Of a stretch of DNA of 58,903 bases, positions 6,431 through 58,903 are shown piece after piece. Source of the stretch: Chiloscyllium plagiosum (taxonomy: Eukaryota); assembly GCF_004010195.1 (NCBI RefSeq), contig NC_057719.1, forward strand, positions 34,089,981-34,148,883. The letters run 5' to 3'. The notes beneath the pieces are model-generated. The model searched no databases and had not been told where the DNA came from. It worked only from the letters and a program-made list of their open reading frames with translations. A program made the position numbers and the translations under genes. Each line of letters begins with the position of its first letter. Position 1 is the stretch's first letter.

Positions 6431-7218
6431 ACTCATGAAAGAAAGACAGTGCTTGACTTAGAGGGTTTCTACAGTAGTTAACAATCCCATGACATTGATG
6501 CAGTTTATTTTTTAAAATGCAAAAAGCTGCAAGACTGGAAGGAGTTGTTGAGGGAAGATTGGTGAAGATCTGCAATGCATTGTTTGCTGTATACAACAGA
6601 CATAATACAGTGCTGTTGGAGCGATTGGCAATTCAGCCGAGTGAGAGGAATGCGAATCAAGCAGTAAAAATTTAACATCCAAACTCGTGTATTAAATTCA
6701 GCTTTTCCTTTGATGAATCTTAATTCTAATCAGCTGCAACTCTGCAAAAGGGAACAGTACAAAGTGAACCTTGCCTCCCGAGCACCGTAAGGGAATAAAA
6801 TACAAAGGTCAGTAGCTTACAAATGGGAAAAACCATGCATCTGATATTTTGCAATTGACAAATAGGAATTGCTGAATTAGGCTGAGATGTGTGAATTCTC
6901 TCTGAGTTTCTTCTCTTTTTCTCTCTCTACTGAAATACCATTGCTAAATGGTGCTTCTGGTTCACACTAACTGAGGTCAGCTAACTAAGCGCAGTCTAAG
7001 TATCAAATCTGGTAATTTTCAAGTCTGACTGGTTCAAGATCTCACTGTTCTCACTAAGCGAAGGTATGGGGAAGCTTCTATCTTGCATGCTAACCACAGT
7101 AACTGTGAGATGATCTTCGGGTGACTTTGGGATAATCTTTCTAAGTAACAAAACAAGGTGCATGGATATAAAAGTTAAGGATAGTTATGAAGGCATAACT
7201 GTGAGAAAAGATCATTAT

Positions 7219-7387
7219 GGAGAAAGTGAGGTCTGCAGATGCTGGAGATCAGAGCTGAAAATGTGTTGCTGGAACAGCGCAGCAGGTCAGGCAGCATCCA
7301 GGGAACAGGAGAATCNNNNNNNNNNNTCTCCTGTTCCCTGGATGCTGCCTGACCTGCTGCGCTGTTCCAGCAACACATTTTCAGCTC
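7219..7387. mobile_element. Palindromic Penelope-terminus insertion (family A), 15-bp TSD, N-gap at centre
   Basis: Arms are reverse complements around Ns at 7316-7326; flanked by agaaaagatcattat at 7204-7218 and 7388-7402. Confidence 0.85.
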
Positions 7388-7442
7388 AGAAAAGATCATT
7401 ATACCAACAGAACATGGAAAGATAAAGACAGTTTATCACTGA

Positions 7443-7918
7443 CTCTCCTTCCTATCAGAAAGATGTTGTGAAACTTGAAAGGGTTCAGACATGGTTTACA
7501 AGGATGTTGCCAGCATTGGACGATTTGAGCTGTAGGGAGAGGTTGAATAGGCTACGGATGTTTTCTCTGGAGCTGAGGGGTGACCTTATGGAGGTTTATA
7601 AAATCATGAGGGGCATGGATAGGGTGAATAGACAAGGTCTTTTCCCTGGGGCGGGGGAGTCCAGAACTAAGGGGCAACTTTTTCACATAGTGGGGTACAT
7701 GAATGGAATGAGCTGCCAGAGGAAGTGGTGGAGGCTAGTATAATTGCAACATTTAAAAGGCATCTGGACACGTATATGAATTGGAAGGGTTTGGAGGGAT
7801 ATGGACTGGGTGCTGGCAGGTGGGACTAGATTGGGTTGGGATATCTGGTCGGCATGGATATGTTGGACCGTAGGGTCTGTTTCCGTGCTATACATCTCTA
7901 TGACTCTATGACTATGAC
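7443..7918 (+). mobile_element. CR1 (HER1-like) LINE 3' fragment
   Basis: LERVQ..FTRMLP..RERLNRL..FSLE..RGDL.EVYKIM ORF2 C-terminus; (ctctatga)n tail. Confidence 0.9.
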
Positions 7919-8171
7919 TTTCATCACCCTTTCTTCCCTTGTCTATATTTCTCTGAGTAACCAGCTAAATTGAAAAGTACAATCCAAGTCTGTGAAGTAT
8001 TTCTCCCATGCATTGACAATTTCTTGACACCATTTTCTTTGTATGCGAACTGCTTTAAAAGTTTACATTATGCACACTAACACTAGGTTTTTGGGGCATT
8101 TATATTTGGTGTCCACAGCTTGGTGATTACTGCATCTTTGGTTTGAAACTAAAGCCAGTAATATTTTTCTG

Positions 8172-8428
8172 AACACTGCTACCTCCCAGCACCAGGGAAG
8201 TGGTTTTGATTCCACACTTGGGTGACTGTGCGGAGTTTGCATATTCTCCCTGTGTCTGCATGGATTTTCTTTGAGTGCTCCAGTTTTCTCCCATAGTCCA
8301 AAGACGTGTGAGTTAAGTGCATTAGCCGTGGGATATACAGGGTTATGGGAATAGGGTAGGGTGTGTGTTGGGTGAGATGCTCTTCAGATAGCCAAATGAT
8401 CTGTTTCCACATAGTAGGGATTCTATGA
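8172..8428 (+). mobile_element. HE1-type V-SINE, degenerate
   Basis: ggagtttgcatattctccctgtgtctgcatgg V-domain; gggattctatga tail. Confidence 0.8.
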
Positions 8429-8913
8429 TCAAAGATGTTCCAAAGAAACCAGCAGCATTCTTTGCTCTAAGGTGATTATTTCTCATCAAAGTGCAGGAAT
8501 AAATATAACTGTATACAGAAAATTCATTATTAAAGACAATATTTTTCAAAGTTTGCCAATGAAGTAAATATCTATACTTGGCTCACATCCAAGGAGTTGC
8601 AAACATACCATCACTATTCTGATACCTTCAAACAGAACACAAAAGAAACAGGGTTATTTTAGCAAACTTAAGACACATATCAATATATTTTCCATTTGAT
8701 AGTGTTCAGCTTATAGTTCAGGGCAGGTAATGATAATGCCCCCTGGCTTTGACACTATAGATCAAGCTGTATGTTTCTTAGAAACAACTAAATACATTGT
8801 TGGTCAAAAAGACAGCTCAATAATTATTTTGTATTCTGCATTCTGGTCTTTGGAACACATGGCAGGGCTTAATACTAGTAATTGAAATGACTTAATTAAT
8901 AATAAACGATATC

Positions 8914-9982
8914 AGCAGAGGGTGGTGGTGGAAGGTTGTTTTTCAGACTGGAGACCTGTGACCAGTGGAGTGCCACAAGGAGCGGTGCTGGGTCCACTGA
9001 TTTTCGTCATTTATATAAATGATTTGGATGTGAGCATAAGAGGTATAGTTAGTAAGTTTGCAGATGACACCAAAATTGGAGGTGTAGTGGACAGCAGAGA
9101 AGGTTCCCTCAGATTACAACAGGATCTTGATCAGATGAGCCAATGGGCTAAGGAGTGGCAGATAGAATTTAATTTAGATAAATGCGAGGTGCTGCGATTT
9201 GGAAAGACAAATCAGAACAGGACTTATACATTTAATGGTCAGGTCCTGGGGAGTGTTGCTGAACAAAGAGACCTTGGAGTGCAGGTTCATAGCTCCTTGA
9301 AAGTGCAGTTGCAGGTAGATAGGATAATGAAGAAGGCATTTGGTATGCTTTCCTTTGTTGGTCAGAGTATTGAGTACAGGAGTTAGAAAGTCATGGTGCG
9401 GCTGTACAGGACATTGGTTAGGCCACTGTTGGAATATTGTGTGCAATTCTGGTCTCCCTCTTACTGAAAGGATGTGTGAAACTTGAAAGGGTTCATAAAA
9501 GATTTACAAGGATGTTGCCAGGGTTGGAGGATTTGAGATACAGGGAGAGGCTGAACAGGCTGGGGCTGTTTTCCCTGGAGCGTCGGAGGCTGAGGGGTGA
9601 GCGTATAGAGATTTATAAAATCATGAGAGACATGGATAAGGTAAATAGACAAGGTCTTTTCCCTGGGGTGGGGGAGTCCAGAACTAAAGGGTATAGGTTT
9701 AGGGTGAGAGGGGATAAATTTAAAAGGGACTTAAGGGGGAATGCTTTCATGCAGAGGGTGGTGTGTGTATGGAATGAGCTGCCAGAGGATATGGTAGAGG
9801 CTGGTAAATTAAAACACTTAAAAGGCATCTGGATGGATACATGAATAGGAAGGGTTTAGAGGGATGTGGGCCAAGTGCTGGCAAATGCGACGAGATTAGG
9901 TTAGGATATCTGATTGGCATGAACGAGTTGGACTGAAGAGTCTGTTTCTGCGCTATGCATCTTTATGACTCTATGGCTCTAT
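8914..9982 (+). mobile_element. CR1 LINE, 5'-truncated, RT pseudogene
   Basis: VTSGVPQGAVLGPLIFVIYINDLD...SKFADDTK RT motifs, with stops and frameshifts; ctctatg tail. Confidence 0.95.
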
Positions 9983-10329
9983 GTCATTCTTAGCCATCAT
10001 CAAGACATAAATCATGCCTGCTGTAGATGTAATTGTACTTCCCAACAGCTTTCTTTGTACAACCTAGTTGTGTTTGATTAGACTTCCGTGTTGCTCAGTG
10101 TCTCTATTCTTAGTTGAGAACACAACTACTTCTCTCTCTGTGTTACATCCTTCCAACCAATTTCCTAAAATGTAACCTTCCAAATTTACTGCATCGGAGT
10201 AGGTTTTTTTGACATTGTTTATAATAGCTGTCCTGAATGATTCTAATGTTTTATACCTGATATGCTGGGAACCATTTAGTCTCACCTGGAACTCTTGGTA
10301 AATACAAAATGAAACCAATGAAGGATGAT

Positions 10330-20538: not shown

Positions 20539-20541
20539 ATT

Positions 20542-20721: not shown

Positions 20722-21950
20722 ATGGCTCCTCAGATTGCAAAAGAGGTTCTGAGATTTGAAAATCATTCTCAGATTTGTCAAGAAAATTTAGATGGAAAGA
20801 AAAAGGCCATACTTTCCAAATTAGAAAAGAAGTTAGATTTGGGTTTAACCAAGGACAAAAGTGAAGCAGAAATTGCAAAGGGGTTACTCAAACACTTCGG
20901 TGTCAGAGAAACAGACAAGTGCAGTAGAGGTAGAAAATATTAAATTACAATTGAGGAAAATGGAATTAGAAGATAAACAAAGGGAGACAGAGAAGGTTCT
21001 TGGCTGACCAAAGGAAGAGAGGAGAGAGAGAAGAGAAAGAAAGAGAGAATTTGAACTTGAGAAATTGTGACTTCATCAGTAAAGTCAAGTAAAGAGGATG
21101 GAGATTAAAAGTGAAGCTAGTGATATATATAAATATGTCAAATCTCTGCCACATGAAAAAGACGTTGAAGCTTTCTTTATTTCATTTGAAAAAAATTGGT
21201 TAGGCAGATGGAGTGGCCTGAGGATTTGTGAGTAGTGCTAGTTCAGACTAAATTGGTAGGCAGAACTAGTGAGGCATTTGCCGCATTGTCAGATGAAGTG
21301 TCAAGAGATTACGAAGAGGTTAAACGGCTATTTTAAGTGCTTATGTGTTAATACCAGAAGCATATAGACAGTGGTTCAGAAACACAAAGTAGGAACCAAG
21401 ATGGTTATGTGCTTTACAAATAAACAGGACATTTGAGGCTCTAAGAGATTATTCTGCTGGAGAAGTTTAAAACCTCACTTCCAAATATGGTAAGAATTCA
21501 CGTGGAGGAACGGATGGTTCAGGAAGTGAAAGGGCAGCATAATTAGCAGATGAGTATATGCTGGTACATAAGACAAGCTTCCGACCAGAATTTCATCCTG
21601 CGAGGGATAAAATTTGGGAGAAGGGAAGATCCTACACCACAAAACCAAGAGTCAAGTACACTGGTAAGAATTTACCACAGGTTAAAGAAGCCCAAGAGGA
21701 TGGATAGAAGGTGAAATGCCTCAGGTGTTTTCACTGTAATAGGACACAGAAAATTACAATGCTGGTGATTTCAGAAGGGCACAGGGAAAAGATGTTTTCA
21801 CTGCCAGAAGGTGGGACATGTAAAGATATGTGTCATTAAAGAAAAGCACTGTGGGGAAAGATGTGGTAAAAGAAGCTAAGCCAGTGGCATTAATGAAGGT
21901 AGTAGAGGAGACCCTAAGAAGAGCCAAGGAGCTGCAAGAGTGCACAGCCT
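20722..21950 (+). pseudogene. gag: gag with SCAN-like capsid domain and CCHC knuckle remnant
   Basis: EKDVEAFFISFEK..QMEWPEDL..LVQTKLVGR..EAFAALSDEVSRDYEEVK...PEAYRQWFRN...LADEY; CFHC near 21725; frameshifted. Confidence 0.85.
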
Positions 21951-22389
21951 GAGCACATAACCATCTTGGTTCCTACTTTGTGTTTCTGAACCACTGTCCA
22001 TATGCTTCTGGTATTAACACATAAGCACTTAAAATAGCCGTTTAACCTCTTCGTAATCTCTTGACACTTCACCTGACAATGCGGCAAATGCCTCAGGCTG
22101 GGCTCCTTGGATGCTGCCTGAACTGCTGTGCTCTTCCTAATCCAGAATCTGGTTTCCAGCATCTGCAGTCATTGTTTTTACCTCATGGAGTTAGTACCTG
22201 ATCTCTACAAAGAATTTGCCTCTGTGGGTAAAGTTTACTCAGAAAGAACAGGGGAGAAGGACAACCAGAATCTGGTTTCCAGCATCTGCAGTCATTGTTT
22301 TACCTCATGGAGTTAGTACCTGATCTCTACAAAGAATTTGCCTCTGTGGGTAAAGTTTACTCAGAAAGAACAGGGGAGAAGGACAAGAA

Positions 22390-25300
22390 ATGATATAGAA
22401 TCTAATCAGTCACTGATAGTAAGAGATGAATGAATATGCACACTTGCTGATCTGTTACCAGAGAGTGTGGTATTTTTTGTGGGATAGATGGACAGAAATT
22501 TAGCATTCCCGTATGTAAGATCAGGTTGGAGTGCCAGCTCAAGACTGGGGAAGTTACAGTGGGAGTGATAGACAGAGTGTCAGTTCCAGGAATTCAGTTT
22601 GTTCTTGGGAATGATTTGGCAGAATCCAAGGTAGGAGTGCCACCCCTTGTTGTGGAGAAGCCCAAGGAAGACCAAAAAACTGAAGAGTTAAAACAGAACT
22701 ATCCCGGTATTTTCCTAGATTGTGTGGCAACCAGATCCCAATATCATAAGACACAATACAAAGTGAAAACTAAAGAGAAAGATGAAGGAGTTGAGGTTCA
22801 GTTAGCAATACCCTGTTTGACATAGTGATGCAGGAAAAACCTGACCAGGCAGAGGGTCAGACAGAAGTGTTTAATCCTGAAAGGCTAAGAAGTGTGCAAC
22901 AGCAAGACAAGATGATAAGGGATATGTGGATGCGTACTCTGAAAAGGAGGCAGAGAATATTCCAGAGGGTTACTATCCAAAAGATAGAATCCTAAGACAG
23001 AAATGGAGATCATGGCAGGTTGGTGCAGGGAGAAATGGGCCGAAATGCACTAGATTGTGTTGCCAGTAGCATACAGACAGGAAGCATTATGGATAGCACA
23101 TGGACTACCTAGGGTTACGAAAGATTCAGGCTATGGTACAAAAACATTTTTATTGGCCTGGAATGCACAAGGATGTGGCTAACTTTTGTCATACATGTCA
23201 CACATGCCAAATGGTAGGTAAGCCATAGGCGGTAATAAAACCAGCCAATTCCCACATTTGAAGAACCTTTCCCACGGGTTATAATTGATTGTGTCGGTTC
23301 CCTCCCAAGAACTAAAAGTGGGAACCAGTACTTATTAACCATGTTGGATATGTCTACCAGATTTCTGGAGGCAATTCCATTATGGAGTCTAAAGGCAAAA
23401 AGGGTAATAGAGAAGTCAGTAACTTTCTTCACATGGTATGGGCTACCCAGAGAGATTCAGTCAGACCAGGGTCAGATTTTACTGCTAGGTTGTTTAAGGA
23501 GGTTGTGGATAGTTTAGGTGCGCAGCACTTTAAATCCAGTGCGTATCATCCTGAATCCCAGGGAGCTTTAGAAATGTGGCATCAGACCTTGAAGTCCATG
23601 TTGAGAGCATACTGCCAGGATTACCCGAATGACTGGGATAAAGGTATCCCATTGGTATTGTTTGTCATTAGAGATGCCCCAAAAGAACCTATTCAGTTCA
23701 CTCCCTTTGAGTTAATATTCGGTCTTGAAGTGAGAGGCTGTTTGAAATTAATGAAAGAAAAATTGACAGGACCAAAGTAAGAGATCTCACAATTAGATTA
23801 TGTGAAGGATCTGGGGGAGAGATTAAATTGAGTAGGTGAGTTAGCTAAACAGTACCTAAAGAGGGCAAGGTATAAAATGAGGAGAAAGTGAGGACTGCAG
23901 ATGCTGGAGATCAGAGCTGAAAATGTGTTGCTGGAAAAGCAACACAGATTCCTGAAGAAGAGCTCATGCCCAAAACGTCGATTCTCCTGCTCCTTAGATG
24001 CTGCCTGACCTGCTGCGCTTTTCCAGCAACACATTTTCAGCCAAGGTATAGAATGAAGCAGGTGGCAGATAAAAACTCTGAGACGCAGACGTTTTCCCAA
24101 GGGGTTAAGGTTTTAGTACTGTTACCAATGGTAGGGGGTCTCTTCAAAGCCAGATTTAGTGGCCCCTATCAAATTGAGGAAAAAGTAGAGTCAGGTGAAC
24201 TATCTAGTAAAGATGCCAAAAAAAATGTATTGAGTATATCACATGTACATGTTGAAACCATATTACATTAGAGAGAAAGAACAGGAGAAACAGGTGTTAG
24301 TTACTGCCCCACAGAGTGAGGAATCAAATCCAGATGATATGGATTTTGAGGTGCCTCAAAATAGATTGAAAAATGAAGAAGTCCTTGAGGAGTGGGATAG
24401 GGTAGTAAGCTATCTGTCTCAGGAGCATAGAATGCAGTTGAGAGCTTTGTTACTACAGTACAAGGACATATGTAAGAATCAGATGAGGAGGACTAACATG
24501 AAGTAGACGAAGGGAATAATGCTCCGATAAAACAACACCCCTATCAGCTTAATCCTCTCAAAGCCAGACAGATCCAGATGGAGGTGGAGGCCATGTTCGA
24601 TGAGAGCATCATTGAACCAACCCAGAGCGAGTGGAGTTCGCCGATTGTCTTAGCTCCCAAACCAGACGGGACTCAACGATTCTGTGTGGATTATCAGAAG
24701 GTCAACGCCATTACAAAATCGGACACATATCAAATTCCTAGATCGGAGGACTCTATCGAGAAAGTCAGACAAGCCAGTTACAAGATCAAGTTCGACTTAA
24801 TATGTGGTTACTGGCAGGAATGTTTATCCGAGACAGTGAAAGAAATTTCTGCGTTTGTGACCCCAAAAGAGCTATATCAGTTTGAAGTGATGCCCTTTGG
24901 AATGAAGAATGCCACATTACAAAGGCTCATGAACAGAGTTGTGGCTGGGTTAACAAACTGTGCAGTCTATTTGAATGATGTATGATCTTTTGTAAGTCCT
25001 AGAAAGATCACATGGTACAGTTGGCAGAGCTGTTTGTACAACTACGAGAAGCAAAAAAGATAAACTTAAACAAAACAGAATTCATGAAAGCAGAGGTGAT
25101 GTTCTTGGGACATAACATCGGTCATGGAAAGTTGATCCCATGGAAGACAAAGACGAAGGCTATCAAGGAATTTCCATGATCAACCTCGAAGGAAGACGTG
25201 CTTCGATTCTTCAGATTCAGTGGATTCTATCGGAAGCGTGTTCCAAACTTTAGCAGTGTCGTGGCATCATTAACCAATTTGCTGAAGAAGAACACAAAAT

Positions 25301-25745
25301 TTCAGTGGACAGAACCATGCCTGGAGGCATTCGACCATTTGAAATCGATATTAACCACCAAACCTTTCAAATCCTTTAAAGTCGACATTGATGCTAGTGA
25401 CATTGGAGTTGGAGCTGTACTCCTACAGGAAGATGAGGATGGGATTGAACTGCCAGTTGGTTACTTTTCAAAGAAGATCAACATTCACAGAGGAAATACT
25501 CCACAATCAAAAAGGAAATATTGAGCTTGGTACTGGCCTTACAGCATTTTAATGTTCGTGACATACACAATGTGTCGGAGACGATTGTGTGCACTGACCA
25601 CAATCTGTTTATATTCTTAGAATGTTTTAAAGATAAGAATATGAGACTATTTCATTGGAATCTTATGTTACAGGCTTTTAATTTAAAAATTATACATGTT
25701 ACAGGTCAGAAGAATGTAATCGCAGATGCGTTATCGCAGATTTAA
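22390..25745 (+). pseudogene. pol: pol: protease remnant, integrase (~23040-23800), RT (~24578-25150), RNase H (~25198-25745)
   Basis: FYWPGMHKDVANFCHTCHTCQ, IIDCVG, QSDQGS, SSAYHPESQGALE (IN) lie upstream of [38 protein letters not shown] (RT) and DASDIGVGAVL, TDHN, NVIADALS (RH). Confidence 0.92.
23881..24041. mobile_element. Palindromic Penelope-terminus insertion (family A) inside Gypsy pol, 15-bp TSD
   Basis: caaggtata(a/g)aatga at 23866-23880 and 24042-24056; contains ctgaagaagagctcatgcccaaaacgtc, a hammerhead core with G>A in GAAA. Confidence 0.85.
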
Positions 25746-25912
25746 CTGAAAGTTTAGATGAGATTTGTCTTTATTTCATGTTATACAGGTATATGGAAAA
25801 AAACTTAAGGTGAACTTATATTAAAGTTATCTATATGCTTGGGTAGTGTGTTTTAAAAGGTTAAAAAAAAGCCATCTTCTCATTATGATAATGCATTTTC
25901 TTAGAGGGGATG

Positions 25913-26591
25913 TGTTATGAAGATGTGGGTTTGAGAGTTCAAAGTGGCAGAACTACCAGATACAGCACCAAGTGTTCTCAGAAAGGTAACAATGTAACGC
26001 TCAATCAAACAACTCGATTAGCTTGTGGTCTGGAGACAAAAGGAAATTTGAATTTGGCCAATCAGTTTAAATTATACCCTGAAAAAATACCCAATTCCAA
26101 TCAAGTTTGTATTGAGTATATTGACAGTCTTAAAACCCAATGACACAATCCAATGCTCTGGGGTATAAGACCGGGGAACATTGAACAGTTGAAAGGATGT
26201 ACCAGACTGCTTGTAAAAACACCTCTCTTAAAAGTCCCTCTTTGATCAGTAACCTGCGATGATGCAGAAATTCTTAACAAGGAGAAAAGAAGACACTGGA
26301 TGGTCTGAAGACAAGAACCTGCCGCTGCCTGGTTTTGAGATAAGGAAAAGTTGTTTTGTAAATCGTAATTGGGGGTTTTATCAGACTAGTATTATAGAAG
26401 GGAAGATAAAAGATAGGTTAGAGAAAGAAATAGTAAATAGTGGTTAGTTAATTATTCTCTGTTATGCTTTAAGAAATAAAGTTGTTCATTTTTACTTTAC
26501 ATAGTTCTTGGCCATGAATTACTGCATGGGATAAATCTTTTCTGTGTTGCTGGTTTTAAATTAAGCAGGAGAGTTTACCCGGTGTGTAACA
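25913..26591 (+). repeat. 3' LTR preceded by a polypurine tract
   Basis: agagggga PPT at ~25903-25910; TGTTA...TAACA termini; aataaa at ~26475. Confidence 0.92.
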
Positions 26592-26815: not shown

Positions 26816-28755
26816 CCTTCTTGTTTGTTACTTACTTTTTCGATATTTTCCTCTGAACAACCGAGATATTTCAGATGAAAGTCATCTTACAATGTGCAGA
26901 TTAGAGTCCCCTGACATAATTAGGCTTAGTCAATGTTTCCTGAACCTGAATCTGTTGACCAACATCATGATCCCAGTTCTGTGTGAACAGCTATAAGAAT
27001 TATTTTTTAATGTTGCTGGAACGAGAAAGTTGTTGTCATGTTCTGCCATTTGCTAATTAAACTCAAATCTTATAGCACAAAGACCAAACTGGAGCAATGA
27101 AATTTCAATTATGTATCCTAATAATTGAGCTAGACTGTCATAGACAAAATAGATGGTGTTACATTTTCTTGCATCTTCAACCAGAAAACATTTGATTATT
27201 GAAAATGAGGTGATCATTCATTCTACCTGAAACATTGATTTTACCCTTGACATTTTCCCTACATTCATGAAGAAAACTTTTTCCAGGGTTGGGGGTATTT
27301 GGAATTGGCTGTCCAGAAACCCTCATCTCCTCAAAAAATTCTGGATTAGCATCTGTTATCAACAAGGCTATGGACAGGTGCTGGGTGTAGAATTAGGATG
27401 GATGGCTAATTTATTCAGTCAGCACAAGCAAAATGCCTTTTTCTGTGCTGTACCTTTTCTATGTTTCCTCTCTGGTGGGAATACATCATAATCCTCACTG
27501 ATGGTAAAACTGAGTAAGTCAGGATTGCAGTGTGAAGCCTGACTTGTGAGACCGTAAGTTTTATTTTTGCAGCTTGTTTACAGCAATTGTCAGTCAATGA
27601 ACATATTGACAAGAGGATGCCCATATAATTACGACTAATGGACATCAAGGTTCATTCCAAAGAGAAATAATACCAACTATATTAGACTCTACATGAACTA
27701 GTTGAAGCAATCTTTGTCCTCAATAACAACCTCACAGGCACTTAGACCAAGTGGAACCAACAGCTCATTCTGCAAGAATGTGGCTGTTAGCACCTGGCCA
27801 GGCAGTTCCAGGCCTGATTCATTCCACATCTGTAGATACTTGTATCTTGTCATTCTTAGATATGTGCTATACTTTTAAGGAACATGCTCTTGATGTCATC
27901 ACTGCATCATGATGGTATAAAGGTCTCAGTATCCATCTGACTGTGTTATGTTCTTTTGCAGCATGACACACTAAGGGGAGTCTGCCCCAGTATATCGGAA
28001 GTGCTTAGCATGAGGACAGACACGCAAGTGCCTGTGATTCTGCTGTACAAATGTAAATATCCGATGTTGTCATAAGCATTCATTGAATTCTTCACTATTA
28101 CATGAACTATGTCATCATTCTGTGGTCAGGTGACCAATGACCTACAAGATTGGATAGATTTTCATAAGCATGGATACAAATCTCAATGTGGAAGTCAAGT
28201 TTAAACCTAGCTGGACTCTGCAATTCGCAAACTGCAGAGCTCGACCACAGTATTCATAAAGCCACGCCTTAGACAATCAACTTCCCATTGAAACCAGACG
28301 GGCCTGGAACTGCCTGGCCAGGTGCTAACAGCCACATTGTTGCAGAATGAGCTGTTGGTTCCACCTCCAGTGAAGTGTTTTGTTAGAATGCTACACAGAC
28401 TTGGTGGTGCCCAGCTCGGTAGGTGGCCAGAGGTAGACTGTGACAAGGAGAGTGTTGAAGGTTCAAAACTGTGTTCCATAACCGCCCAATATGGAAAGTA
28501 GTCACCTCATTGGATTTTCCTGCCTTCACCCAATGCTAATATTGGACACAGGTTACAGAATATTCAAGAAGGGCACAAAGAAGGAATAAAAGGGCAACTG
28601 TGAGCCCCATCTCTCTCTGTTTTTTTAACTTCTTCAATAGCATCTCCAGAGAGCACCTTCAACTGGCAGCGCAGCATCTGCAGCTCCCTGTACCTCATAG
28701 TTAGCATCATCAGATTGGCCTGACCCAGAGACAACCTCAGTGAGACCACCAGAAG

Positions 28756-28789
28756 TTGATCTCCAGCATCTGCAGACCTCACTTTCTCC
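28756..28789 (+). mobile_element. 34-bp Penelope-terminus (family A) stub between 36-37 bp direct duplications
   Basis: gatctccagcatctgcagacctcactttctcc; flanks 28719-28755 and 28789-28825 are identical. Confidence 0.8.
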
Positions 28790-28872
28790 CTGACCCAGAG
28801 ACAACCTCAGTGAGACCACCAGAAGGTCAGAACCAGCCCTAAATGAGAAAGAGAGCCCAAATCAACAACTTG

Positions 28873-36808: not shown

Positions 36809-37484
36809 TACACAAGTCTACTGCTCTATTAATGCCATTTTTGGATTTTGGTTTTGCAAAATAACCTGTGAGGTAAAAGAAAATCAAGAGAATGGCAGGG
36901 TTTTTCTGAGAGAATTTTCTCGAATTGTCAAAAATGTGGAGGCCAAGATATCTGACTATCTGTCATCTTGCTGATGTCTGATCATTTTGCCTTGTTGTAC
37001 AACCTCAGCTTTTATTCCCTTCACTTAGAAAATTCCAGGATGATCCAGTGAAGATGTTTAACATGTGGAAGGGAGTCAATGATGCGGTCGACTGACAGTT
37101 TTGCAATTGGATCAAAGTGAAATGAACCTCACCCAAAATGAGCTCCTTCCAGTTGGCATACTGATCCAAGGGGTGGGAGAAATTGCAGGTCAGCTGCATA
37201 CTCAAAACCAACTTGTGGTGGGAGTTAAAATGATTGCCTGGTTTCTGCCCCAGTGGTCAGCATTAAAAGCATCTCTAAAGCTTTCCAGAATTAATGCTGT
37301 TTATAAATAATCCAATGCACTAAAAGCAGAATGTCACCTTCATACATTGAGATCATTGTCATAGAAGAGCATCAGGATAAATCCAGATCACAGAAATAGC
37401 AGCATTTTCTTTTAACTCTTGGATCGAAATATCAATGTAACCGCTGCAAAGGGTTTGAAGAATCATTTGATTTCTCATCAAGTA

Positions 37485-38122
37485 GTTGAAAAGTGTGACA
37501 CTGGAAAAGTCCAGCAGGTCAGGCAGCATCCAAGGAGCTGGACAGTCAACGTTTCTGGCATAAGCCCTATATCAGGAATGTGATGAGGGGAAGGAGCTGA
37601 GAGATAAAGAAAAATAGGGTGGGGTGGGGGTGGGGCTAGAGGGAAGATAACTGGGAAGGCGAGAGGTAGCTACACTTGGGGGTTGACCCGACTACTGGAG
37701 GAAGAACCACTCATTTTCTGCCTTGGGACCCTCAAACCACACAGGATTAATGTCGATTTCACTAGTTTCCAAATCTCCCCTCCCTCCACCTCATCCCAGA
37801 TCCAACCCTCCAACTCAGCACCAGCCTCTTGAACTGTCCTACCTGTCCATCTTCCTTCCCACCTATCCGCTCCACCCTCTGCTCCAACCTATTACCATCA
37901 TCCCTCCACCTGCATCTACCTATTGCCTTCTCAGCTACCTTCCCCCAACCCCAACCCCACTCTCTTATATATTTCTCAGCCCACTTCCCCACACCTGATG
38001 AAGGGCTTTTGCCCGAAACATCGACTCTCCTGCTCCTCGGATGCTGCCTGACCTGCTGTGCTTCTCCAGCACCCCACCTTTTGACTTTGACTCTCCAGCA
38101 TCTGCAGTCCTCACTTTCTCCC
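37485..38122 (+). mobile_element. Penelope-like element 3' end (family A): inverted terminus, GIY-YIG C-terminus, pseudo-LTR; 14-bp TSD
   Basis: LEEEPLIFCLGTLKPHRINVDF at ~37695-37760; TSD tttctcatcaagta at 37471-37484 and 38123-38136. Confidence 0.85.
37991..38027 (+). ncRNA. Minimal hammerhead ribozyme-like motif (family A)
   Basis: CTGATGA-A-GGGC tttt GCCC-GAAAC-ATC; stem I weak, and GTC has become ATC. Confidence 0.55.
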
Positions 38123-39307
38123 TTTCTCATCAAGTAATCTGTTACTAAATATTGAGTGGTATTCATATAACTAAATTTAGTCTAAGAATGGCAAAATACT
38201 GATTTTCCTTTTGTGTTGAATTTTTGAATACTATGTCTAGAATCTAACTCACACAAAGCAACAGATTTATTGACACATGCACTTAAAGGCAACATCAATG
38301 AATGAAAGTAAGGTATACCTTTACACTGTAAGTGGTACATTATTACAATTATAGTTAATTGCATGTTGTAATGACCTTCTTTCTCTTGTACTTGACATGC
38401 ATACATTAAAATCATTTGGCAGACATTTAAAGAAGTATTATTCTGCATCATAAGACTGCAAAAGTCCTCAATTCTTTTTATAGAAGTCACTAATGGATGT
38501 TTTATGATCAGTTAACTACTCAATCTATTATGAATTCATTTGGACTAGCAAAAGGCTATGACAGAAAAGCACTTAAGGGTTCTTTAGATTTGTCGCAGTA
38601 ATCTTATCAAAAGTAGCCAGCAATTAACATTTGGAATCCTTGCTTAGAGTCACAGAGGTAAAAGTAAACAATCTGCTGATTAAACATTTTAATTTATGCA
38701 GCAATCTTGAATTAAACATTCAGCAACTGGCGATTTATTTAGTGGCTTCCAATTGCTGTGACTCTTGTTATAATTGTGTGATTGATTCATTTTTATTATT
38801 CAATCTCTGCCATTATAAATGGGATTTTACTTTCATGCTGATCTTTATTGTAACATTTATCAGTCCATGCAATTAGTTTTGCACCCACCCATGTTATTAA
38901 CATGACTTGAAGCAAAATTGCAGAAACTGGCTGCAAAATTCAGTTTTCTAGCCATTAGTATCACTGCCAAGGGAATGATAGTAAAAGAAAAGTGTAAGGA
39001 ATTGGGGCCACTCCAATTCAGTTCTGATGAGGCCTGTACCCAATGTCATATTGTGCAGAGAAGGCAGAACACAATGCTATTCAGCATCTAATGCTGATTT
39101 AGACCCCACCTGCCAATTTTGGGCATGGCTACTCCTATTCACACTCTCTTTTAAGCATATACAACATGGTTAAACATGTGTAACCTCCTGTTAGTCCCGG
39201 CAAAAGGCATTCCCATCTAAATTCCAGATGAGGTATATTTGCACTCTCTACTATAGAATTCGAAGAGACACTGGGTTGATACAGGAGTTATGTGAAATTG
39301 TTCATCA

Positions 39308-42150: not shown

Positions 42151-42156
42151 TCTCTT

Positions 42157-42840: not shown

Positions 42841-43092
42841 AAAATATCAGCTGATACCCACATTAAGGTGTCATATAAGTATTGCTCATAAAACCCAGTG
42901 GTGTGTGTTTTCTGTAAAATTTGAAGTCTGCAATGTGAATGAAAAATAATCTATTGATAACTGAATTGTAATCCCAATGAACAGAGATCACTTTAACTTC
43001 TGTACTGGAGTTTAAGCAGCAGTTAACGCTAAAAATTCAAAATCTCTAATGGAAACTTTACTTAACTGAGTGTGTAACATCTAATATTCATT

Positions 43093-43648
43093 TGGAAGCA
43101 CTAGCTTTCAGAGCGCTGCTCCTTCATCAGGTGGTTGTGGAGTAGACACAGAATTTGTAGCAAAAGTTTGCAGTGTGATGCAACTGAAATTATATATTGA
43201 AAATTACCCAGATTGTTTGTTAAGTCTCTCATCTTTTAGAATGACCATGATGGTTTCAGTTCTTTCATATGTAAAAAAATGTTACATTCTCAAGTGAACT
43301 TTAACAATTGGTGCTATGTCGGCCCAGATAATGTATTGAAGGTGTGAGGTGCCCTGTGTGAGGCTGTCTCTGTCAGTTCAGACAGATTCTAATCTAAAAA
43401 AGGATTAACAGAATCTTACATGGGTTCATGCAGTTTTTGAGCAAAATAAAATGTAATTCTGCAAGTACATAAGTCTGTGGGGTGATTTTGTACTGGAAAG
43501 AATTACATTTTATTTTTAAAAGCATTGAGGTTTACTCCCAAGCCTGCAAGTACAAATTCACCCCACACACATAAGTCTGTGGGGTGATTTTGTACTGGAA
43601 AGAATTACATTTTATTTTTAAAAGCATTGAGGTTTACTCCCAAGCCTG
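43093..43648 (-). mobile_element. Penelope-like 3' UTR/pseudo-LTR (family B) with fold-back end
   Basis: Homologous to 47600-47754; ends in an inverted, duplicated gaattacattttattt segment. Confidence 0.8.
43099..43133 (-). ncRNA. Minimal hammerhead ribozyme motif (family B)
   Basis: Reverse complement: CAC-CTGATGA-A-GGAGC agc GCTCT-GAAA-GC-TA-GTG; stem I cac/gtg; palindromic AGCT stem III. Confidence 0.7.
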
Positions 43649-45383: not shown

Positions 45384-47324
45384 TTAAAGGTACAATACAC
45401 CCATATCTTCATAACACCTCCCCCATAAGAAAAAATGAGCCATCATAATGAAAAGATGGCTTCATTTTTTTTCTCTATTCTTCAAACATATTACCCTAAG
45501 CTACAGATAACTTTAATCTAAGTTCACCTCTACTTCTTCCTATATAACTGTACGTATGTAGATAATATTAAATAAAGATAACTCTCATCTAAACTTGATC
45601 AGTTAAATCCACAATAACACATCTGCGATTACGTTCTTACGACTTACAATATGCATGATTTTGAAATTGAAAGTCTGTAACATAAGACTCCAATGAAATA
45701 GTCTCATATTTTGTATTTAAAGCATTCTAAGAATGTAAGCAGATTGTGATCCTTGTACACAACCGTCTCCAACACATTGTTCGTGACATACACATTAAAA
45801 TGTTGTAAGCCGGTACCAAACTCAATGGCTTTTTTTGATTGTGGAGTATTTCCCCTGGTGGATGTTGAGTTTCTTTGAAAAGTTACCAACTGGCAGTTCA
45901 ATCCCATCCTCATCTCCCTGTAGGAGTACAGCTCCAACTCCTATGTCACTTGCTTCGATGGTGACTTTAAAAAGTTTTAAAAAGTTTGGTGCAGCTAAAA
46001 CTGGTTTGGTGGTTAATATTGATTTCAAATGGTCGATGGACTCCTGGCATGGTTCTGTACACTGAACCTTTGTGTTCTTCTTCAGCAAATTGATTAACGA
46101 TGCCACTACACTGCTGAAGTTTGGAACAAACTTCCAATAGAATCGTGACTTTAAAAAGTTTTAAAAAGTTTGGTGCAGCTAAAACTGGTTTGGTGGTTAA
46201 TATTGATTTCAAATGGTCGATGGACTCCTGGCATGGTTCTGTCCACTGAAACTTTGTGTTCTTCTTCTGCAAATTGATTAACGATGCCACTACACTGCTG
46301 AAGTTTGGAACAAACTTCCAATAGAATCTGTTGAGTCCTAAGAATTGAAGCACCTCTTTCTTCGAGGTTGGTCATGGAAATTCTTCGATGGCCTTCGTCT
46401 TTGTGCTCAGTGGGGTCAACCTTTCATGACCGATGTTATGTCCCAAGAACATCACCTCTGCTTTCCCGAATTCCATTTTATTTAAGTTTATTACCAGTTT
46501 TGCTTCTCATAATCATTCAAAAAGCTCTGCCAACGGTACCATGTGATCTTTCCAGGAGTTACTATAGATCACCACATCGTCCAAATAGACCGCACAGTAT
46601 GCTAACCCAGCCACAACTCTGTTCATGAGACTTTGGAAGTTGACAGATGTGTTTTTCATTCCAAAGGACATCACTTTAAACTGATATGGCCCATCTGGGG
46701 TTACAAACACAGAAATTTCTTTTGCTGTCTCTGATAAAGATACCTGCCAGTAACCACACATTAAGTCGAACTTGGTGATGTGACTAGTTTGTCTGACTTT
46801 CTCGATATAGCCCTCCAATCTAGGAATTGGATATAAACCAGATTTTGTAACGGGGTTGACCTTCCAATAATCCACGCATAATCGTTGAGTCCCGTCCGGT
46901 TTGGGAACTAGGATGATCGGTGAACTCCACTCGCTCTGGCTCGGTTCGATGATGTTCTCGTCGAGCATGGCCTCCACCTCCATCTGGCTGTGAAAGGATT
47001 AAGCAGATAGGGGTGCTGTTTTATCAGAGCAGTATTCCCTACGTCTACTTCATGTACAACAGCATTAGTCCTACCCATCTGATTTTCACATGTCCTTATA
47101 CTGCAGTAACAAATCTTTCAACTGTGTTCTGTGCTCCTGACGCAGATAGCTTACTAACCTATCCCACTCCTCAAGGACTTCTTCATTTTTAATCAGGCAA
47201 CCCAGCTAATCTAGCTTTCAACCAAGAGTTACATTGTTACCTTATTGAGAATACTTGGTGCTGTCAGGTAGTTCTGCGAGCTTTTAATTCTCTTAAAGGT
47301 ACAGTACACCCACATCATCAAAAC
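45384..47324 (-). mobile_element. Internally deleted second copy of the Gmr1-like element (LTR start, RT, RNase H, PPT, LTR stub)
   Basis: Minus ORFs SEWSSPIILVPKPDGTQRLCVDY..VYLDD and EASDIGVGAVLL; gggggagg PPT then TGTTATGAAG at 45415; first ~130 bp of an LTR at 47196-47324. Confidence 0.88.
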
Positions 47325-47754
47325 ACATGTCTTTCAATATACCATTACCACCAAATAAAGGGAACGACTCTGGGTAAATGAAGTGTGCAAGTAAGTAAGT
47401 CTGGAGCAGGACCAGACACATTTAAAAATGAGGCATCAAACTGGAGAAGATAATGCACAAGACTGTTTGCACATCAAACTGGAGAAGCAGTATGTGATAG
47501 ACAGAACTAAGCAAGCCCTCAACCAATGGGTAAGGTCAAATCATTGCAGTGCTGCCATATCCAGAGTTAAAAATTACACAACACCAGGTTATAGTCCAAT
47601 ACATTTAATTGGAAGCACACTAGCTTTTGGAGCATCGCTCCTTCATCAGGTGATAGTGGAGGGCTCAGTCCTAACACACAGAATTTATAGCAAAAATTTA
47701 CAGTGTGATGTAACTGAAATTATTCATTGAAAAATTGATTGTCTGTTAAGTCTT

Positions 47755-48909
47755 TGCACCCCAATATGCCAACATTTTTATGCACAGGTTCGAACAAGAC
47801 TTCTTCTCTATGCAGGATCTCCAACTGATATTGTACACCAGATACATTGACAACATTTTCTTCCTCTGGACCCATGGTAAGGAGTCACTGATAAAACTAC
47901 ACAGCGACATCAACAAGTTCCATCCCACCATCAAACTCATCATGGACTACTCTCCACTGTCTGTCTCATTCTTGGACACATGCATCTCCATCAAGGATGG
48001 ACACCACAGCACCACACTCTACCGCAAACGCACAGACAACCTCACAATGCTACACTTCTCCAGCTTCCACCCAAAACATATTAAAACAGCCATCCCCTAT
48101 GGACAAGCCCTACGCATACACAGGATCTGCTCAGATGAGGCGGAATGTGAAGGACACCTGGAAGTACTCAGGGATGCCCTCACAAGAATGGGGTATGGTG
48201 CCCAACTCATTGACCACCAGTTCTGATGTACCACAGCAAGGAGACAGACCTCCTCAGGAGACAGACACGTGCTGCAACCGACAGGGTATCCTTCGTTGTT
48301 CAGTGTTTCCCAGGAGCTGAAAAACTACGCCATGTTCTTCATGACCTGCAACACATTATCAATGAGGATGAGCACCTCACCAAGACCTTCCACACATCTC
48401 CACTATTTGCCTTTAAACAACCACCAAACCTCAAACAGATCATTGTTCGTAGCAAGCTGCCCGGCTCTCAGGACAACTCCATACAACCCTGTCACGGCAG
48501 GCGCTGTAAGACGTATCAGAATGTGGACATAAATAACACCATTACCCGTGGGGACACTTCCCACCTTGTACATTGCAGGTACTCATGTGACTCAGCCAAC
48601 GTTTTCTATCTTATACGTTGCAGGCAGGGATGCCCTGAAGCATGGTACATTGGGGAAACTGAGCAAAGGTTACGACAACGGATGAATGGGCACCGCACAA
48701 CAATCAACAGACAGGAGAGTTCCCTCCCAGTTGGGGAACACTTCAGTGGTCTAGGATATTCGACCTTGGACCTTCGGGTGACCATCCTCCAAGGCGGACT
48801 TCCGGACAGGCAGCAGCGAAACGTGGCCGAGCAGAAGCTGATAGCTAAGTGCAGTACCCATAGGATGGGCCTCAACCGGGACCTTGGGTTCATGTCACAT
48901 TACAGGTGA
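47755..48909 (+). pseudogene. PLE reverse transcriptase C-terminus and GIY-YIG endonuclease
   Basis: APQYANIFM, RYIDNIF (YIDD>YIDN), FLD, LYRK.TD, SFHP; NVFYLIRC..C...YIGET.QRL.QRMNGH; stop and frameshift at ~48226. Confidence 0.93.
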
Positions 48910-48924
48910 CCACCATTGCATTAG

Positions 48925-49046
48925 ACACATACACAGACACTCATATATATATATATATATCTTATACACACACACACACATCCACAGACGCACTCACAGA
49001 CACCCACGCACACCCTTACAGACACACACACCCCCACACTCACACA
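48925..49046. repeat. (CA)n/(TA)n degenerate microsatellite in the PLE 3' UTR
   Basis: Direct inspection. Confidence 0.9.
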
Positions 49047-49246
49047 TGCTTGTTAACAGCTAACCTGAGAATGCAACTTTTTAAAAAAAGGTTTTGTGAT
49101 TTACACATGAAAGAAGTGAAACTATCATAGTATTCAAACAGATGAAAGACTTAACAGACAATCAATTTTTCAATGTATAATTTCAATTACATCACACTTA
49201 AATGTTTGCTATGAATTCTGTCTGTTAGGACTGAGCCCTCCACTAT

Positions 49247-49281
49247 CACCTGATGAAGGAGTGATGCTCTGAAAGCTAGTG
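49247..49281 (+). ncRNA. Minimal hammerhead ribozyme motif in the PLE pseudo-LTR (family B)
   Basis: CAC-CTGATGA-A-GGAGT gat GCTCT-GAAA-GC-TA-GTG, in sense to the RT ORF. Confidence 0.7.
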
Positions 49282-49724
49282 TGCTTCCAATTAAATGTAT
49301 TGGACTATAACCTGGTGTTGTGTGATTTTTAACTTTGTACACCCCAGTCCAACACCAGCATCTCCTAATCATGAGTGCCATATCCAGTCATGTAGAATTG
49401 TGATCAATCAAACATCTAACCTTGAGACTCGAGTTCACTAATAACTCTATCCTCTATGACAAGGACTCTCAGAGCATCAGTACAAAAGACAAGGCAGAAT
49501 CCTTTGCAGCCATAATCTGATAGAAATTCCAAGTGGATTATCCATCACAATCTGTTGAAAGGTCCAGCATCACAGATACTAATCTTTTGCCAATTCCATT
49601 CACTCCACGTTGTATGAGAAATCTGCTGAAGGCACTGGATGCAACAAAAGTCATGAGCCTTAACAACATCTTACTAGTATGCAATCTTTATATCCTTAGG
49701 TTACACACTATTAAACTCTAACAG

Positions 49725-50066: not shown

Positions 50067-50189
50067 TGCTACATTGTGAATGTTATCACGTGTCTTTTAA
50101 AGGTAAACTGATGTACAGTGCCTCTTAAACATACATTGACTGTGAAATGCGACACAAAAAAAAATTGAGCTCCAGAATTAGCCAAACCA

Positions 50190-55262: not shown

Positions 55263-57043
55263 TACTTTGGTCCACGTGACAATAAATCAAATCAATCAAT
55301 ACCATTGTGCTACAGAGCTCACAAATCTCCTTTCTATTCTAGATCTAAGTAGATTAAATTGGTAAAGGACGAACCACTAGTGAGTCTTAACAAGAAGAGT
55401 CACTGTCTTAACAAGAGGTAGTCTCTTGCATAGTAACAATAGGTACAAGTAACAAAGACTATTTAGAGATAATTACTAAAAAAATATCAGCAGCCACCAA
55501 TGACATGTCTGACCCCATAGAATCATGAGCCAGATGCAAGATTTTTCACCCAAGACTGTGCAGCATCATCACATTAGTGGAGCTTAATGCAATTTTCAAC
55601 ATGAACACTCTTGGAAGCATTACGTACACAACATCTCCCCACATGCTAATCCTTCCACATATTTGCATTTATACATTTAAGTATATAATTAGTTTTACAT
55701 TTTCCACTGCTATATCTTCCACCAAACCTCTGATTTCACAAATTCAAGAATTCTGGATGCCCCCAAATTCTTTCAGAATATGATTGTTTCCGTCTTAGAA
55801 GCCTGGTAGGTCTTTGGCTTGAGATCTACTGACTTTGATGCAGATTGTCAGCTGATTGATCTGAAAACTATTCCTCCTGTGGAGGAGGATCTTTCATTGT
55901 CTGGATGTCATTGCAGCTAATCCGAGCAGTGCTTTCTTGTTTGCAAGATCCTGGATTTTTAGACCAGGCCCTTTCATTATCTTGACCCTACCCTAAACAT
56001 GTGGATGTTGGTCCGTCTTCCATGAAGTCGCACGCAGCTCATTTCCATTTTGTTCAAACAAATCTTCATTCTCAATCTCCTGTTACACCTGTGCTGAAGT
56101 ATGTAAGATATGTCCCTCAACCTGTTGAGTAGATTAAAGATTTTCATTTGCCCTCGGAGCATATGTTTTTGGTGAACTAAATATTTTCATATCCGCAATG
56201 ATGTTACTGGGGATTCCTGTTTACTTAGCATTATCTTAGTCACCAGTATTTATAATTCATCTGAGAAAGGCTGTTGAGCCTGTGTCTGTGCATCATAGTA
56301 TCAAGGTCAAATCTGCTTATCAATTTCTCCAGCATACTGTATTGCTGTCTGAACAATTTCAATTAAAATTTCCTCAATGCACTCAAGTGGCACAGTTTTA
56401 ATAACTTTCTCCAAAGTCAAATCTCTATAGATAGCAATAAATCTGACAAAGACTCATCAATAATACCAATGAAAATTCTCTCTCTTAAAAATTTGATTTC
56501 AAAGCTCTATAGACCCAGTTTTCATTTAATCTGTTGTAACCATCAATGGAATAATATATAGATTCCCTAAGTGCTAAACTTTTCTGTTAAATTGTGTGCT
56601 TTCAAGAATTTTGTTTATTCTCAGACAAAAGTAGTTCCAAAAGCTTGAACAACTTCTATAAAATGTCTGTAGTGTGCCTGCCTCTTTATTCTGGCAATTT
56701 ATGAGGTAGTCAGATCTCGGTCCAACTGAATATAATAGTTCATTCAATTCTTCGACTTCAATTTTAAAACAATTCTACAAGTTGAGAATGGCTTTCCCCT
56801 GGATGTCCAATTTATATTCAGTCTAGCACATCTTTCTAAAAACATCATTGGGAAATGTGGGCTTTGCTGGTGACCTTAAGATAGTGAAGGTGTGCTGCCT
56901 TTTGAATCGCTGCAGTCCATTTAGTGTAGGTGCACACACAGTGTTGTTAGAAAGACAGTTAAATGATCATTACTCAGGAACAGGAAAGGAATGATGATGT
57001 ATTTCCAAATCTGGATAGTGACTAGACTGAGGAGAAATTGCAG

Positions 57044-57150
57044 TCAAGATTAGAGTGGTGCAGGAAAACACAGCAGGTCAGGCAGCATCGAAGGAGCAGG
57101 AAAATCTAATCTTTACTCTAATCTCCAGCATCCACAGTACTGACTTCCGC
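57044..57150. mobile_element. PLE-terminus insertion (family A variant), 17-bp TSD
   Basis: ctgaggagaaattgcag at 57027-57043 and 57151-57167. Confidence 0.85.
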
Positions 57151-57224
57151 CTGAGGAGAAATTGCAGGCAATGACATACCCATGTTTCCGCTGCCCTTGT
57201 CCTTCTAGATGGCGGTGGTTGTAA

Positions 57225-57349
57225 GGAGAAAGTGAGGACTGCAGATGCTGGAGACCAGAGTTGAAACATGTGGTGCTGGAAAAACACAGCAGGTCAGGCA
57301 GCATCCGAGGAGCAGGAGAATCGATGTTTCAGGCATAAGCCCTTCTTCA
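57225..57349 (-). mobile_element. PLE-terminus insertion (family A), 14-bp TSD, ends at the hammerhead core
   Basis: ggc(g/a)gtggttgtaa at 57211-57224 and 57350-57363; reverse complement ctgaagaagggcttatgcctgaaacatc. Confidence 0.85.
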
Positions 57350-58206
57350 GGCAGTGGTTGTAAGTTTAGAAGGTGCTTTCCAAGGAGCTATGGTTAATTT
57401 CTGTAGTGCATTTTGTAAATGGCACATATCCCTGCTCCTGAATGCTAGCATTGGAGTAAGTGATGTTTGAGCACGTGGAACCAATCAAGTCGTATGATTT
57501 GTCTAAGAAGATGTCAAGCTTTTAGAGTGTTGTTGACATTGCACTCATCCAGGCAAGTGCAGGCAGGTGCAGTTCATTTCCTGGTTAATGGTAACCCTAA
57601 GGATGTTGATAGTAGGGGATCATGAGATGATAGTGCCATAGAATATCAAGGGGCAATGTTTTAGACTCTCCTTTGTTGGAGACGGTTATTGCCTGGCATT
57701 TGTGAGCATGCATTACCTGAAACTTATTTAGACCAACCTGGATATTATCAAGTCCTGCTGCATTTGGATGTAGACTTCTTCAGTATCTAAGGAGTTGTGA
57801 ATGGCACCGGACATTATGCAATTGTTGGTGAAATATCCCCTCTTCTGACCTTATGATAGAGGGTAGGTCATTGATGGAGTGGCTGAAGACAGTTGGGCCT
57901 AGGACACTACCATGAGGAATTCATGTAGAGACATACTGGAACTGAGATGACTGCACTTCAATAACCACAGCTTCTTGCATTTGACTCCAACCAGTGAGAA
58001 TCCTTCACATTGACATTAGTTTTGCTCAGGGTCCTTAATGCCACATCAATCGAGAACTGCCTTGTGGTCTGGCACAGTCACATTCACCTCACCTCTGGAG
58101 TTCAGCTGTTTTGTCCATGTTTTAATCAGGCTATATTGAGATCAGGAACTGAATTTTTCTGGAAGAACCCAAACTAACCATTAGGGAGCTGTTTACTAAG
58201 CATGTG

Positions 58207-58745
58207 CATAGAGTCATAGAGAGTCATAGACCCTCATACAGCATGAAAGGAGGCCCTTTGTGTCCATGCCAGTCATCAAACATCCATCTTCTCTAATCCC
58301 ACTCTCCATCACTTGGCCCAGAGCCTTGTGTGCCACAGAGTTTCAAGTGCTCATCTAAATGATTCTTAAATGTCTTGAGGGTTCCCACCTTGACCATTAT
58401 TTAAGGCAGTGAGTTCCAGATAATCTCAACTCTCTAAATTAAAAAACACAATCTTTAAGTCCCCCCCCAAATTTGCTGCTCCTTACCATAAAACTGTGCC
58501 CTCTACTTCTTGATCCTTTTACTAAGAGGAAAGGTTTTTTTTTCCTATGAACCCTGTCTATTTTCCTTAGAATTTCATACACCTCAATCAGAAATCCCTC
58601 AGCCTTCTCTGCACTAATCTCTCTCCACAGGTGGATAACTCCATCCATGCAAGTGAATCTTTTCTGCACCCGACTGCAATCACATCCTTCCTTAATGTAG
58701 CAAACAGTGCAAACAGTGTTCCCACTGTGCCATAACTGATGTCGC
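58207..58745 (-). mobile_element. CR1 3' fragment, degenerate
   Basis: RVQKRFT..; SRSRGHSFMVRSSKF; catagagtcataga tail. Confidence 0.8.
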
Positions 58746-58777
58746 ATACAGCTCAGTCATCACCTCCTTACTCTTAG

Positions 58778-58903
58778 GTAAAAACAATGACTACAGATGC
58801 TGGCAACCAGTTTCTGGATTAGTGGTGCTGAAAGAGCACAGCAGTTCAGGCAGCATCCGAGGAGCAGTAAAATCGACGTTTCAGGCAAAAGCCCTTCATC
58901 AGG
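58778..58903 (-). mobile_element. PLE terminus (family A variant) with intact hammerhead core, truncated by the window edge
   Basis: Reverse complement of 58871-58903: cCTGATGA-A-GGGC tttt GCCT-GAAAC-GTC-gatt. Confidence 0.8.

Follow-up and report, generated by a model that had tools for sequence, protein, structure and literature searches.

Insertions of endonuclease-positive Penelope-like elements (PLEs) share a characteristic form. They are strongly 5'-truncated, an inverted 5' copy lies beside a direct copy, one of the inverted pseudo-long terminal repeats (pLTRs) carries at one end only an extension of 30-40 bp termed the tail, a target-site duplication (TSD) surrounds the whole unit, and upstream of the pLTR a C-terminal GIY-YIG endonuclease is encoded (PMC3846280; PMC8557442). 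In Poseidon, a PLE of Anolis carolinensis, the tail is set by two fixed 3' ends and lies between two internal start sites of the reverse transcriptase (RT), a hammerhead motif lies about 100 nt upstream, and in vitro the enzyme acts on both target strands, cutting and extending each; the main text of that report describes neither clustered 5' ends nor joints through stem I of the hammerhead (PMC11167929). The minimal hammerheads of metazoan PLE pLTRs are built on a type I core, with an unpaired base ahead of stem II, a G-C closing pair, palindromic positions 15.2-16.2 and a short stem I of 4-5 bp (PMC4209133). Most of them stand alone and some occur as pairs on opposite strands (PMC4209133; PMC6765202), some pairs lying 100-700 bp apart, and the main-text parts consulted name no shark (PMC4209133); they cleave as dimers according to a review (PMC6765202). 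Animal non-LTR retrozymes, reported in one cartilaginous fish genome, are likewise short hammerhead-bearing repeats related to PLE pLTRs, and consist of 150-450 bp units arrayed head to tail, as a rule with hammerheads of the canonical kind and with circular RNAs (PMC7229834; bioRxiv 10.64898/2026.07.22.740005).

We analysed ten short inserts with hammerhead-like motifs in a 58,903-nucleotide stretch of the shark Chiloscyllium plagiosum (contig NC_057719.1, hereafter the window). By their sequence, they are 3' end modules, pLTR plus tail, of an endonuclease-bearing PLE of this shark. All five features listed above for canonical endonuclease-positive insertions are found in both, and the shark family belongs with them. 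It differs in that its copies are mostly the end module alone (34-230 bp) and very abundant, and in that its TSDs measure 12-17 bp against 8-10 bp in rotifer PLE examples (PMC3846280; PMC8557442). Its layout and its hammerhead also agree with those of Poseidon and of the minimal PLE hammerheads, although family and host differ from the former and its stem I has four positions with one mismatch. In contrast, two defining features of retrozymes fail, namely tandem units (0 of 10 copies) and the absence of coding sequence: the shark copies are solitary or head-to-head, TSD-bounded and linked to an open reading frame (ORF). The most probable explanation, which we favour with some confidence, is that they are short PLE integration products made by priming at two sites followed by run-off at an RNA 5' end located just before the hammerhead.

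The inserts are thus of a known kind, and not the poorly described system of the original prediction, since the literature already describes each of inverted pLTR, tail, TSD and minimal hammerhead. We did not find in print the clustering of 5' ends and the stem I joint reported below. A search of the open-access literature, with repeat databases outside its scope, returned nothing on the shark family, on clustered 5' ends, on stem I joints or on twin priming in PLEs.

Copies, target sites and link to a PLE endonuclease

All ten copies of the original prediction are present. A profile built from their arms gave 16 matches in the window at E<=2.5e-5, every one within these ten loci and one of them duplicating part of the 22102 copy; the match that followed had E=0.87, and the best match in the reversed window had E=8.8. 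Exact-pattern scans of viral, metagenome and prokaryote collections returned no copy. The copies, named below by their first coordinate, and the coding remnant inside the longest of them are as follows:

6301-6430, forward strand: single-arm copy from the hammerhead edge to the tail, without TSD
7219-7387, reverse strand: two-arm copy, tail at 7219, inverted arm 7327-7387 lacking 33 nt; an 11-N gap (7316-7326) hides its centre; TSD 7204-7218 / 7388-7402, 15 bp, no mismatch
22102-22183, forward strand: single-arm copy starting 3' of the hammerhead, with an internal deletion and without TSD
23881-24041, reverse strand: two-arm copy; the arm with the tail is short (23881-23941), the inverted arm longer (23948-24041) and beginning 4 nt ahead of the hammerhead core; TSD 23866-23880 / 24042-24056, 15 bp, 1 mismatch
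28756-28789, forward strand: insert made of the tail alone (33-34 nt), flanked by direct repeats of 36-37 bp (28719-28755 / 28789-28825)
34438-34666, forward strand: near-palindromic copy, both arms starting 7-8 nt before the hammerhead core, 7-bp hairpin at the centre; TSD 34423-34437 / 34665-34679, 13-15 bp, 1 mismatch
37485-38122, forward strand: longest copy (638 bp), inverted arm 37485-37686, direct arm 37687-38122 with ORF end, 3' untranslated region (UTR), hammerhead core from 37995, predicted cut after 38022 and tail at about 38089-38122; TSD 37471-37484 / 38123-38136, 14 bp, no mismatch
37686-37790, forward strand: end of the coding sequence of a PLE GIY-YIG endonuclease, within the longest copy
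57044-57152, forward strand: two-arm copy, inverted arm 57044-57106, inside a repeat resembling a long interspersed nuclear element (LINE); TSD 57027-57043 / 57151-57167, 15-17 bp, no mismatch
57225-57352, reverse strand: single-arm copy from the hammerhead edge to the tail; TSD 12-15 bp, 1 mismatch
58776-58903, reverse strand: the 58778 copy, truncated at the hammerhead edge by the end of the window

The longest copy links the family to a PLE. Its 35-residue peptide (37686-37790) matched five database proteins at 61-74% identity in a HMMER search, and two of these, being long enough, could be matched to full-length PLE proteins in their C-terminal endonuclease region (best E 3.5e-13 among 130 proteins). 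A profile of 82 PLE C-termini, run against 3924 six-frame pieces, ranked the peptide directly behind two pieces of the window's own coding PLE, described below, with 14.2 bits against 6.1 for the next piece and 8.1 for the best reversed control. The peptide had no PLE match by word-index search, Atlas (best 0.86) or pairwise comparison, nor with a narrow profile of eight sequences, one of which was an unrelated septin stretch. As the direct arm of the 37485 copy carries this ORF end, the repeat is the 3' end of an endonuclease-positive PLE, in the order ORF end, pyrimidine-rich 3' UTR, hammerhead, about 65 nt, tail. A purely non-coding family, as originally proposed, was rejected on this ground. 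The same continuity, together with the layout of inverted pLTR plus tail, supports the other proposal of that prediction, extreme 5' truncation with inversion during PLE integration.

TSDs of 12-17 bp were found in six of nine assessable copies, or seven with the 36-37 bp duplication at 28756; the 58778 copy, cut by the window end, was left out, and the lengths are ranges because the repeat overlaps the element's own end bases. Only 1 of 1500 random boundary pairs scored as high. No TSD was found at 6301 or 22102. The TSDs are therefore not uniformly of 14-17 bp as first described, since only six copies fall within 12-17 bp, one has 36-37 bp and two have none; a defined staggered cut remains plausible, though with TSD lengths that vary more than had been claimed. 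The tail-side flanks of 6301, 7219, 22102, 23881 and 34438 show an A/T-rich ATG- or ATT-like motif a few bases from the tail end, which may point to a weak cut preference.

LINE-like, Gypsy-like and short interspersed nuclear element (SINE)-like repeats crowd the window. The LINE-like repeat that hosts both 57044 and 57225 has paralogues that run colinear through the two sites and carry a single copy of the target (four paralogues were compared, not every flank aligning to each), and 22102 and 23881 lie within a Gypsy-like region, recognised by an RT match and by an integrase read from the sequence, the latter piece having no Pfam match. Both host types had been predicted. SINE hosts, also predicted, were rejected: none of the ten copies was located inside a SINE, and 28756 lies about 40 bp from one SINE-like repeat.

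Every inverted arm (5 of 5) ends 33-36 nt before the fixed end, and the 28756 insert consists of just the piece that these arms miss. This piece is the published PLE tail. Of one fixed and one variable end, as first described, the fixed end thus stands, but the supposedly variable end of the inverted arms is also fixed, 33-36 nt inside. The copies had been called often palindromic, and five of ten carry an inverted arm.

A different origin of the inverted arm bears on these observations. It could have been made by fold-back of the first strand, often through stem I, with copying up to the inner tail site, in which case the 5' clustering would reflect RT stalling at the pyrimidine-rich tract or at RNA structure, not run-off. 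Self-priming has been proposed for head-to-head PLE junctions (PMC3846280), the 34438 copy has its 7-bp central hairpin, and in the two youngest copies the arms do not differ at all (0 of 61 positions in 7219, 0 of 25 in the other), with private variants common to both arms of each copy in 7219 and 23881. Yet fold-back gives no ready reason why the second arm should stop at an RT start site known in vitro, nor does it suit tail-only arms or the very unequal arm lengths of 23881 and 37485. The 23881 copy cannot be a simple fold-back, because its inverted arm holds sequence that its tail-bearing arm misses. In two older copies the arms are 16 of 93 and 25 of 101 positions apart, no closer than unrelated copies; the latter is 37485, whose TSD is perfect, which is suggestive only. 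Arm identity does not decide between fold-back and two primings, and taking these points together we regard fold-back as an improbable account of the family. At the 23881 junction, a non-family G at 23947 sits just before the inverted arm's 5' end, the kind of base left when a cap is reverse-transcribed; it is a single case and may belong to a 6-7 nt templated filler.

The hammerhead motif and the 5' ends

The motif shows the CUGANGA / GAAA / NUH core, an extra base before stem II, a stem II of 4 bp, a palindromic stem III, and a putative stem I that would pair 37991-37994 with 38023-38026, four positions with one U-U mismatch. It fits the minimal dimer-type hammerhead of metazoan PLE pLTRs, its cleavage being a prediction from these features. 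That most copies contain the core is true in the sense that 6 of 10 insertions span it whole (three lack it, and the centre of 7219 is hidden in the N gap), but CTGANGA, GAAA, ACGT and GTC are all intact in only one of eight core-spanning arms, that of 58778, the others having 1-3 changes. An Rfam scan of the window at E<=1 gave two chance matches and no hammerhead. None of seven single-strand predictions produced a hammerhead fold or reached a significant z-score, which is what decayed copies of a dimer-type motif would be expected to show, and stem I appeared in 0 of 7 predicted lowest-energy folds and 0 of 3 dimer folds.

Twelve of the 15 arms are informative on their 5' ends, two running into the 7219 N gap and one into the window end. 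Five of the twelve start 1-8 nt before the hammerhead core, and one, the inverted arm of 57044, starts exactly at the predicted cut site; the remainder comprises one tail-only arm, three arms with starts further 3' and two with starts further 5'. The breakpoints are thus not random, as the original prediction had held, and cluster at the upstream edge of the hammerhead with a P value that depends on the null.

To these we added data from related sharks: three sets of DNA contigs, under two organism labels, and one RNA run (a polyA single-cell library), four of 24 listed runs in all, aligned to 37680-38160. Each DNA run held 97,581-120,452 contig pieces matching the family, a figure that shows a very abundant family and is not a copy count. 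The counts that follow cover 24 of 2173 loose-end positions and 15 of 729 joints, two runs not being fully counted. Among the positions listed, the largest loose end in every run was at 37994, the base before the core (2142, 1875 and 2176 contigs; 584 RNA reads). Beyond it, agreement with the family was 0.35-0.37 in the DNA runs, as past a true end (0.35 past the tail end) and unlike clips that continue in family sequence (0.64-0.71). Loose ends at 38071-38077 remained family-like to about 38087 and were random thereafter, which matches the inner tail site.

The commonest inversion joint among those listed linked 37994 to 38026-38029, 3-6 nt past the cut site, in 60 of 71, 50 of 56 and 41 of 60 contigs with opposite-strand joints (eight such joints listed); tail-only joints were also among those listed, and perfect hairpin joints may be under-represented in contigs. 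The joint is as would be expected if a cDNA ending at 37991 folded back through stem I. Alternatively, a cDNA of uncut RNA and a cDNA of self-cleaved RNA might have annealed through stem I.

These recurring joints also bear on whether the palindromes could be assembly artefacts or later rearrangements of ordinary truncated copies, as the N gap at the centre of 7219 between identical arms and several other local duplications in the window might suggest. The same inversion joints occur in three runs from two organisms, the TSDs enclose both arms in all five two-arm copies, and the arms of the older copies have diverged. We rejected an artefactual origin on these grounds and consider it scarcely credible.

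The RNA run yielded reads about equally on both strands, their depth being about 2400 over the module and no more than 85 upstream of it; these reads look like passenger transcription. No RNA run in the index listing was named as carrying the family. The depth step would suit another explanation, that the hammerhead-to-tail module of about 135 nt is an independent non-autonomous element, similar to a SINE or a retrozyme, transcribed alone or in tandem and mobilised in trans by a PLE enzyme. Head-to-tail joints from the tail end to the hammerhead edge were indeed found in 19, 14 and 24 contigs among the joints listed, pLTRs alone are enough for mobilisation in trans in a rotifer (PMC3846280), and animal retrozymes have been argued to derive from PLE pLTRs (bioRxiv 10.64898/2026.07.22.740005). 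However, none of the ten window copies is arranged in tandem, the module is continuous with the endonuclease ORF in 37485-38122, and at least three end variants in the window speak against a single master. Reads from both strands are what passenger transcription gives, and the depth step is confounded by reference divergence upstream. An independent element is therefore rather unlikely to our mind, though less so than fold-back, and the retrozyme-like system first proposed finds no support in the window, with 0 of 10 copies head-to-tail and a hammerhead of the minimal PLE type.

Proposed two-site priming and run-off near the RNA 5' end

In the explanation that we favour, by analogy with the Anolis PLE, the enzyme would nick both target strands about 12-17 bp apart. 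One strand would prime at the outer tail site and give the tail-bearing arm, the other at the inner site, about 33 nt away, and give the inverted arm without tail. Two-site priming of this kind resembles the twin priming of L1. Transcription of PLEs starts within the pLTR (PMC2377424; PMC6765202), so the priming sites lie near the RNA 5' end, and copying there would produce only the module, ending at a common point. With start sites only about 135 nt from the transcript 5' end, the product would be a stump that reaches the hammerhead edge or, in rare cases, the cut site of an RNA that had cleaved itself. Priming on the downstream pLTR of a tandem transcript may produce longer copies such as 37485-38122. 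The cDNA ends would then be joined through short homology, often that of stem I.

Several observations weigh against this explanation. Within the window, the 5' clustering is modest, with P of 0.0004-0.05 per arm, or 0.007-0.23 when the two 34438 arms are counted once, depending on the null. In the related sharks, the reference itself favours clips at 37994, as it differs from the family at 37992-37993 and fits poorly over 37952-37985, and the ranking of ends and joints applies to the subset given above. Stem I pairs only three of its four bases; in naked cDNA it does not form, its terminal base being paired at <0.01, and no stem I joint is visible in the five two-arm copies of the window, although the 7219 gap may hide one. 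The start of transcription at the hammerhead edge is presumed, the bases just before the core giving an initiator-like match. No pile-up of read starts or ends was seen in the RNA run, a polyA single-cell library that cannot test cleavage. Neither a full-length element nor an RT of the short-copy family was seen within the window. The identical arms of the two youngest copies fit fold-back copying equally well, and the two copies without TSD and the long duplication at 28756 fall outside the expected pattern. For the Anolis element, no reads or RNA ends were reported at the cut site and cleavage was not needed in vitro (PMC11167929).

Neighbouring repeats and implications for PLE biology

The window also contains a coding PLE of a different family:

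47565-49375, forward strand: coding PLE with an inverted arm to 47755 that lacks the tail of about 38 nt

It has the same inverted-arm and tail layout as the short copies, a frameshifted RT-endonuclease ORF (47750-48909), a minimal hammerhead at 49250 and a 12-bp TSD. Pfam did not recognise the pieces of this ORF, whose closest named relatives are from Heptranchias, Mustelus, Scyliorhinus and Chiloscyllium. This family and its relatives share a Cys motif, the corresponding region being absent from the copies of the short-copy family; a zinc-finger-like motif between RT and endonuclease has been described for the Neptune clade (PMC8557442). Its hammerhead shares the core of the short copies but differs from them in the stem III palindrome, and its stem I is 3 bp long. 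A non-coding piece of this second family lies at 43086-43400.

Other duplications are found nearby. A 144-bp Gypsy-like stretch (21270-21413) recurs inverted at 21952-22095 (99% identical), directly before the 5' end of the 22102 copy, as if local DNA had been captured at the insertion junction. A 123-bp tandem duplication (22142-22386) starts inside the same copy; an alternative reading is a tail-only insert of 41 nt flanked by direct repeats of 81 bp, comparable to 28756. The Gypsy-like LTR remains at 21270-26000 have an unusual domain order, with an integrase-like frame (23316-23780) upstream of the RT (24497-24985), and an inverted Gypsy-like piece at 45399-47194 is about 80-84% identical to them. 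Further near-identical inverted or tandem duplications lie at 27751-27814 / 28301-28364, 43467-43648 and 45958-46328 (64, 80 and 187 bp).

The PLE papers cited here regard as unsettled how these elements make their inverted ends and tails and which role the hammerhead has in vivo. The many short TSD-bounded insertions of this shark allow breakpoints, TSD lengths and arm origins to be counted from an assembly alone, and the pattern of their breakpoints offers a practical clue to the way in which PLE ends are formed; from the stem I joint follows a specific prediction for the in vitro PLE system already available. A more ambitious proposal, which we hold only tentatively and think somewhat doubtful, is that the hammerhead marks the 5' end of the PLE template RNA and that stem I, once copied into DNA, joins both cDNA strands. 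If true, shark genomes would preserve, in six-figure numbers, traces of run-off in vivo and of occasional self-cleavage, the long puzzling head-to-head inversions of PLEs would be explained, and the module of about 135 nt would possibly be self-propagating.

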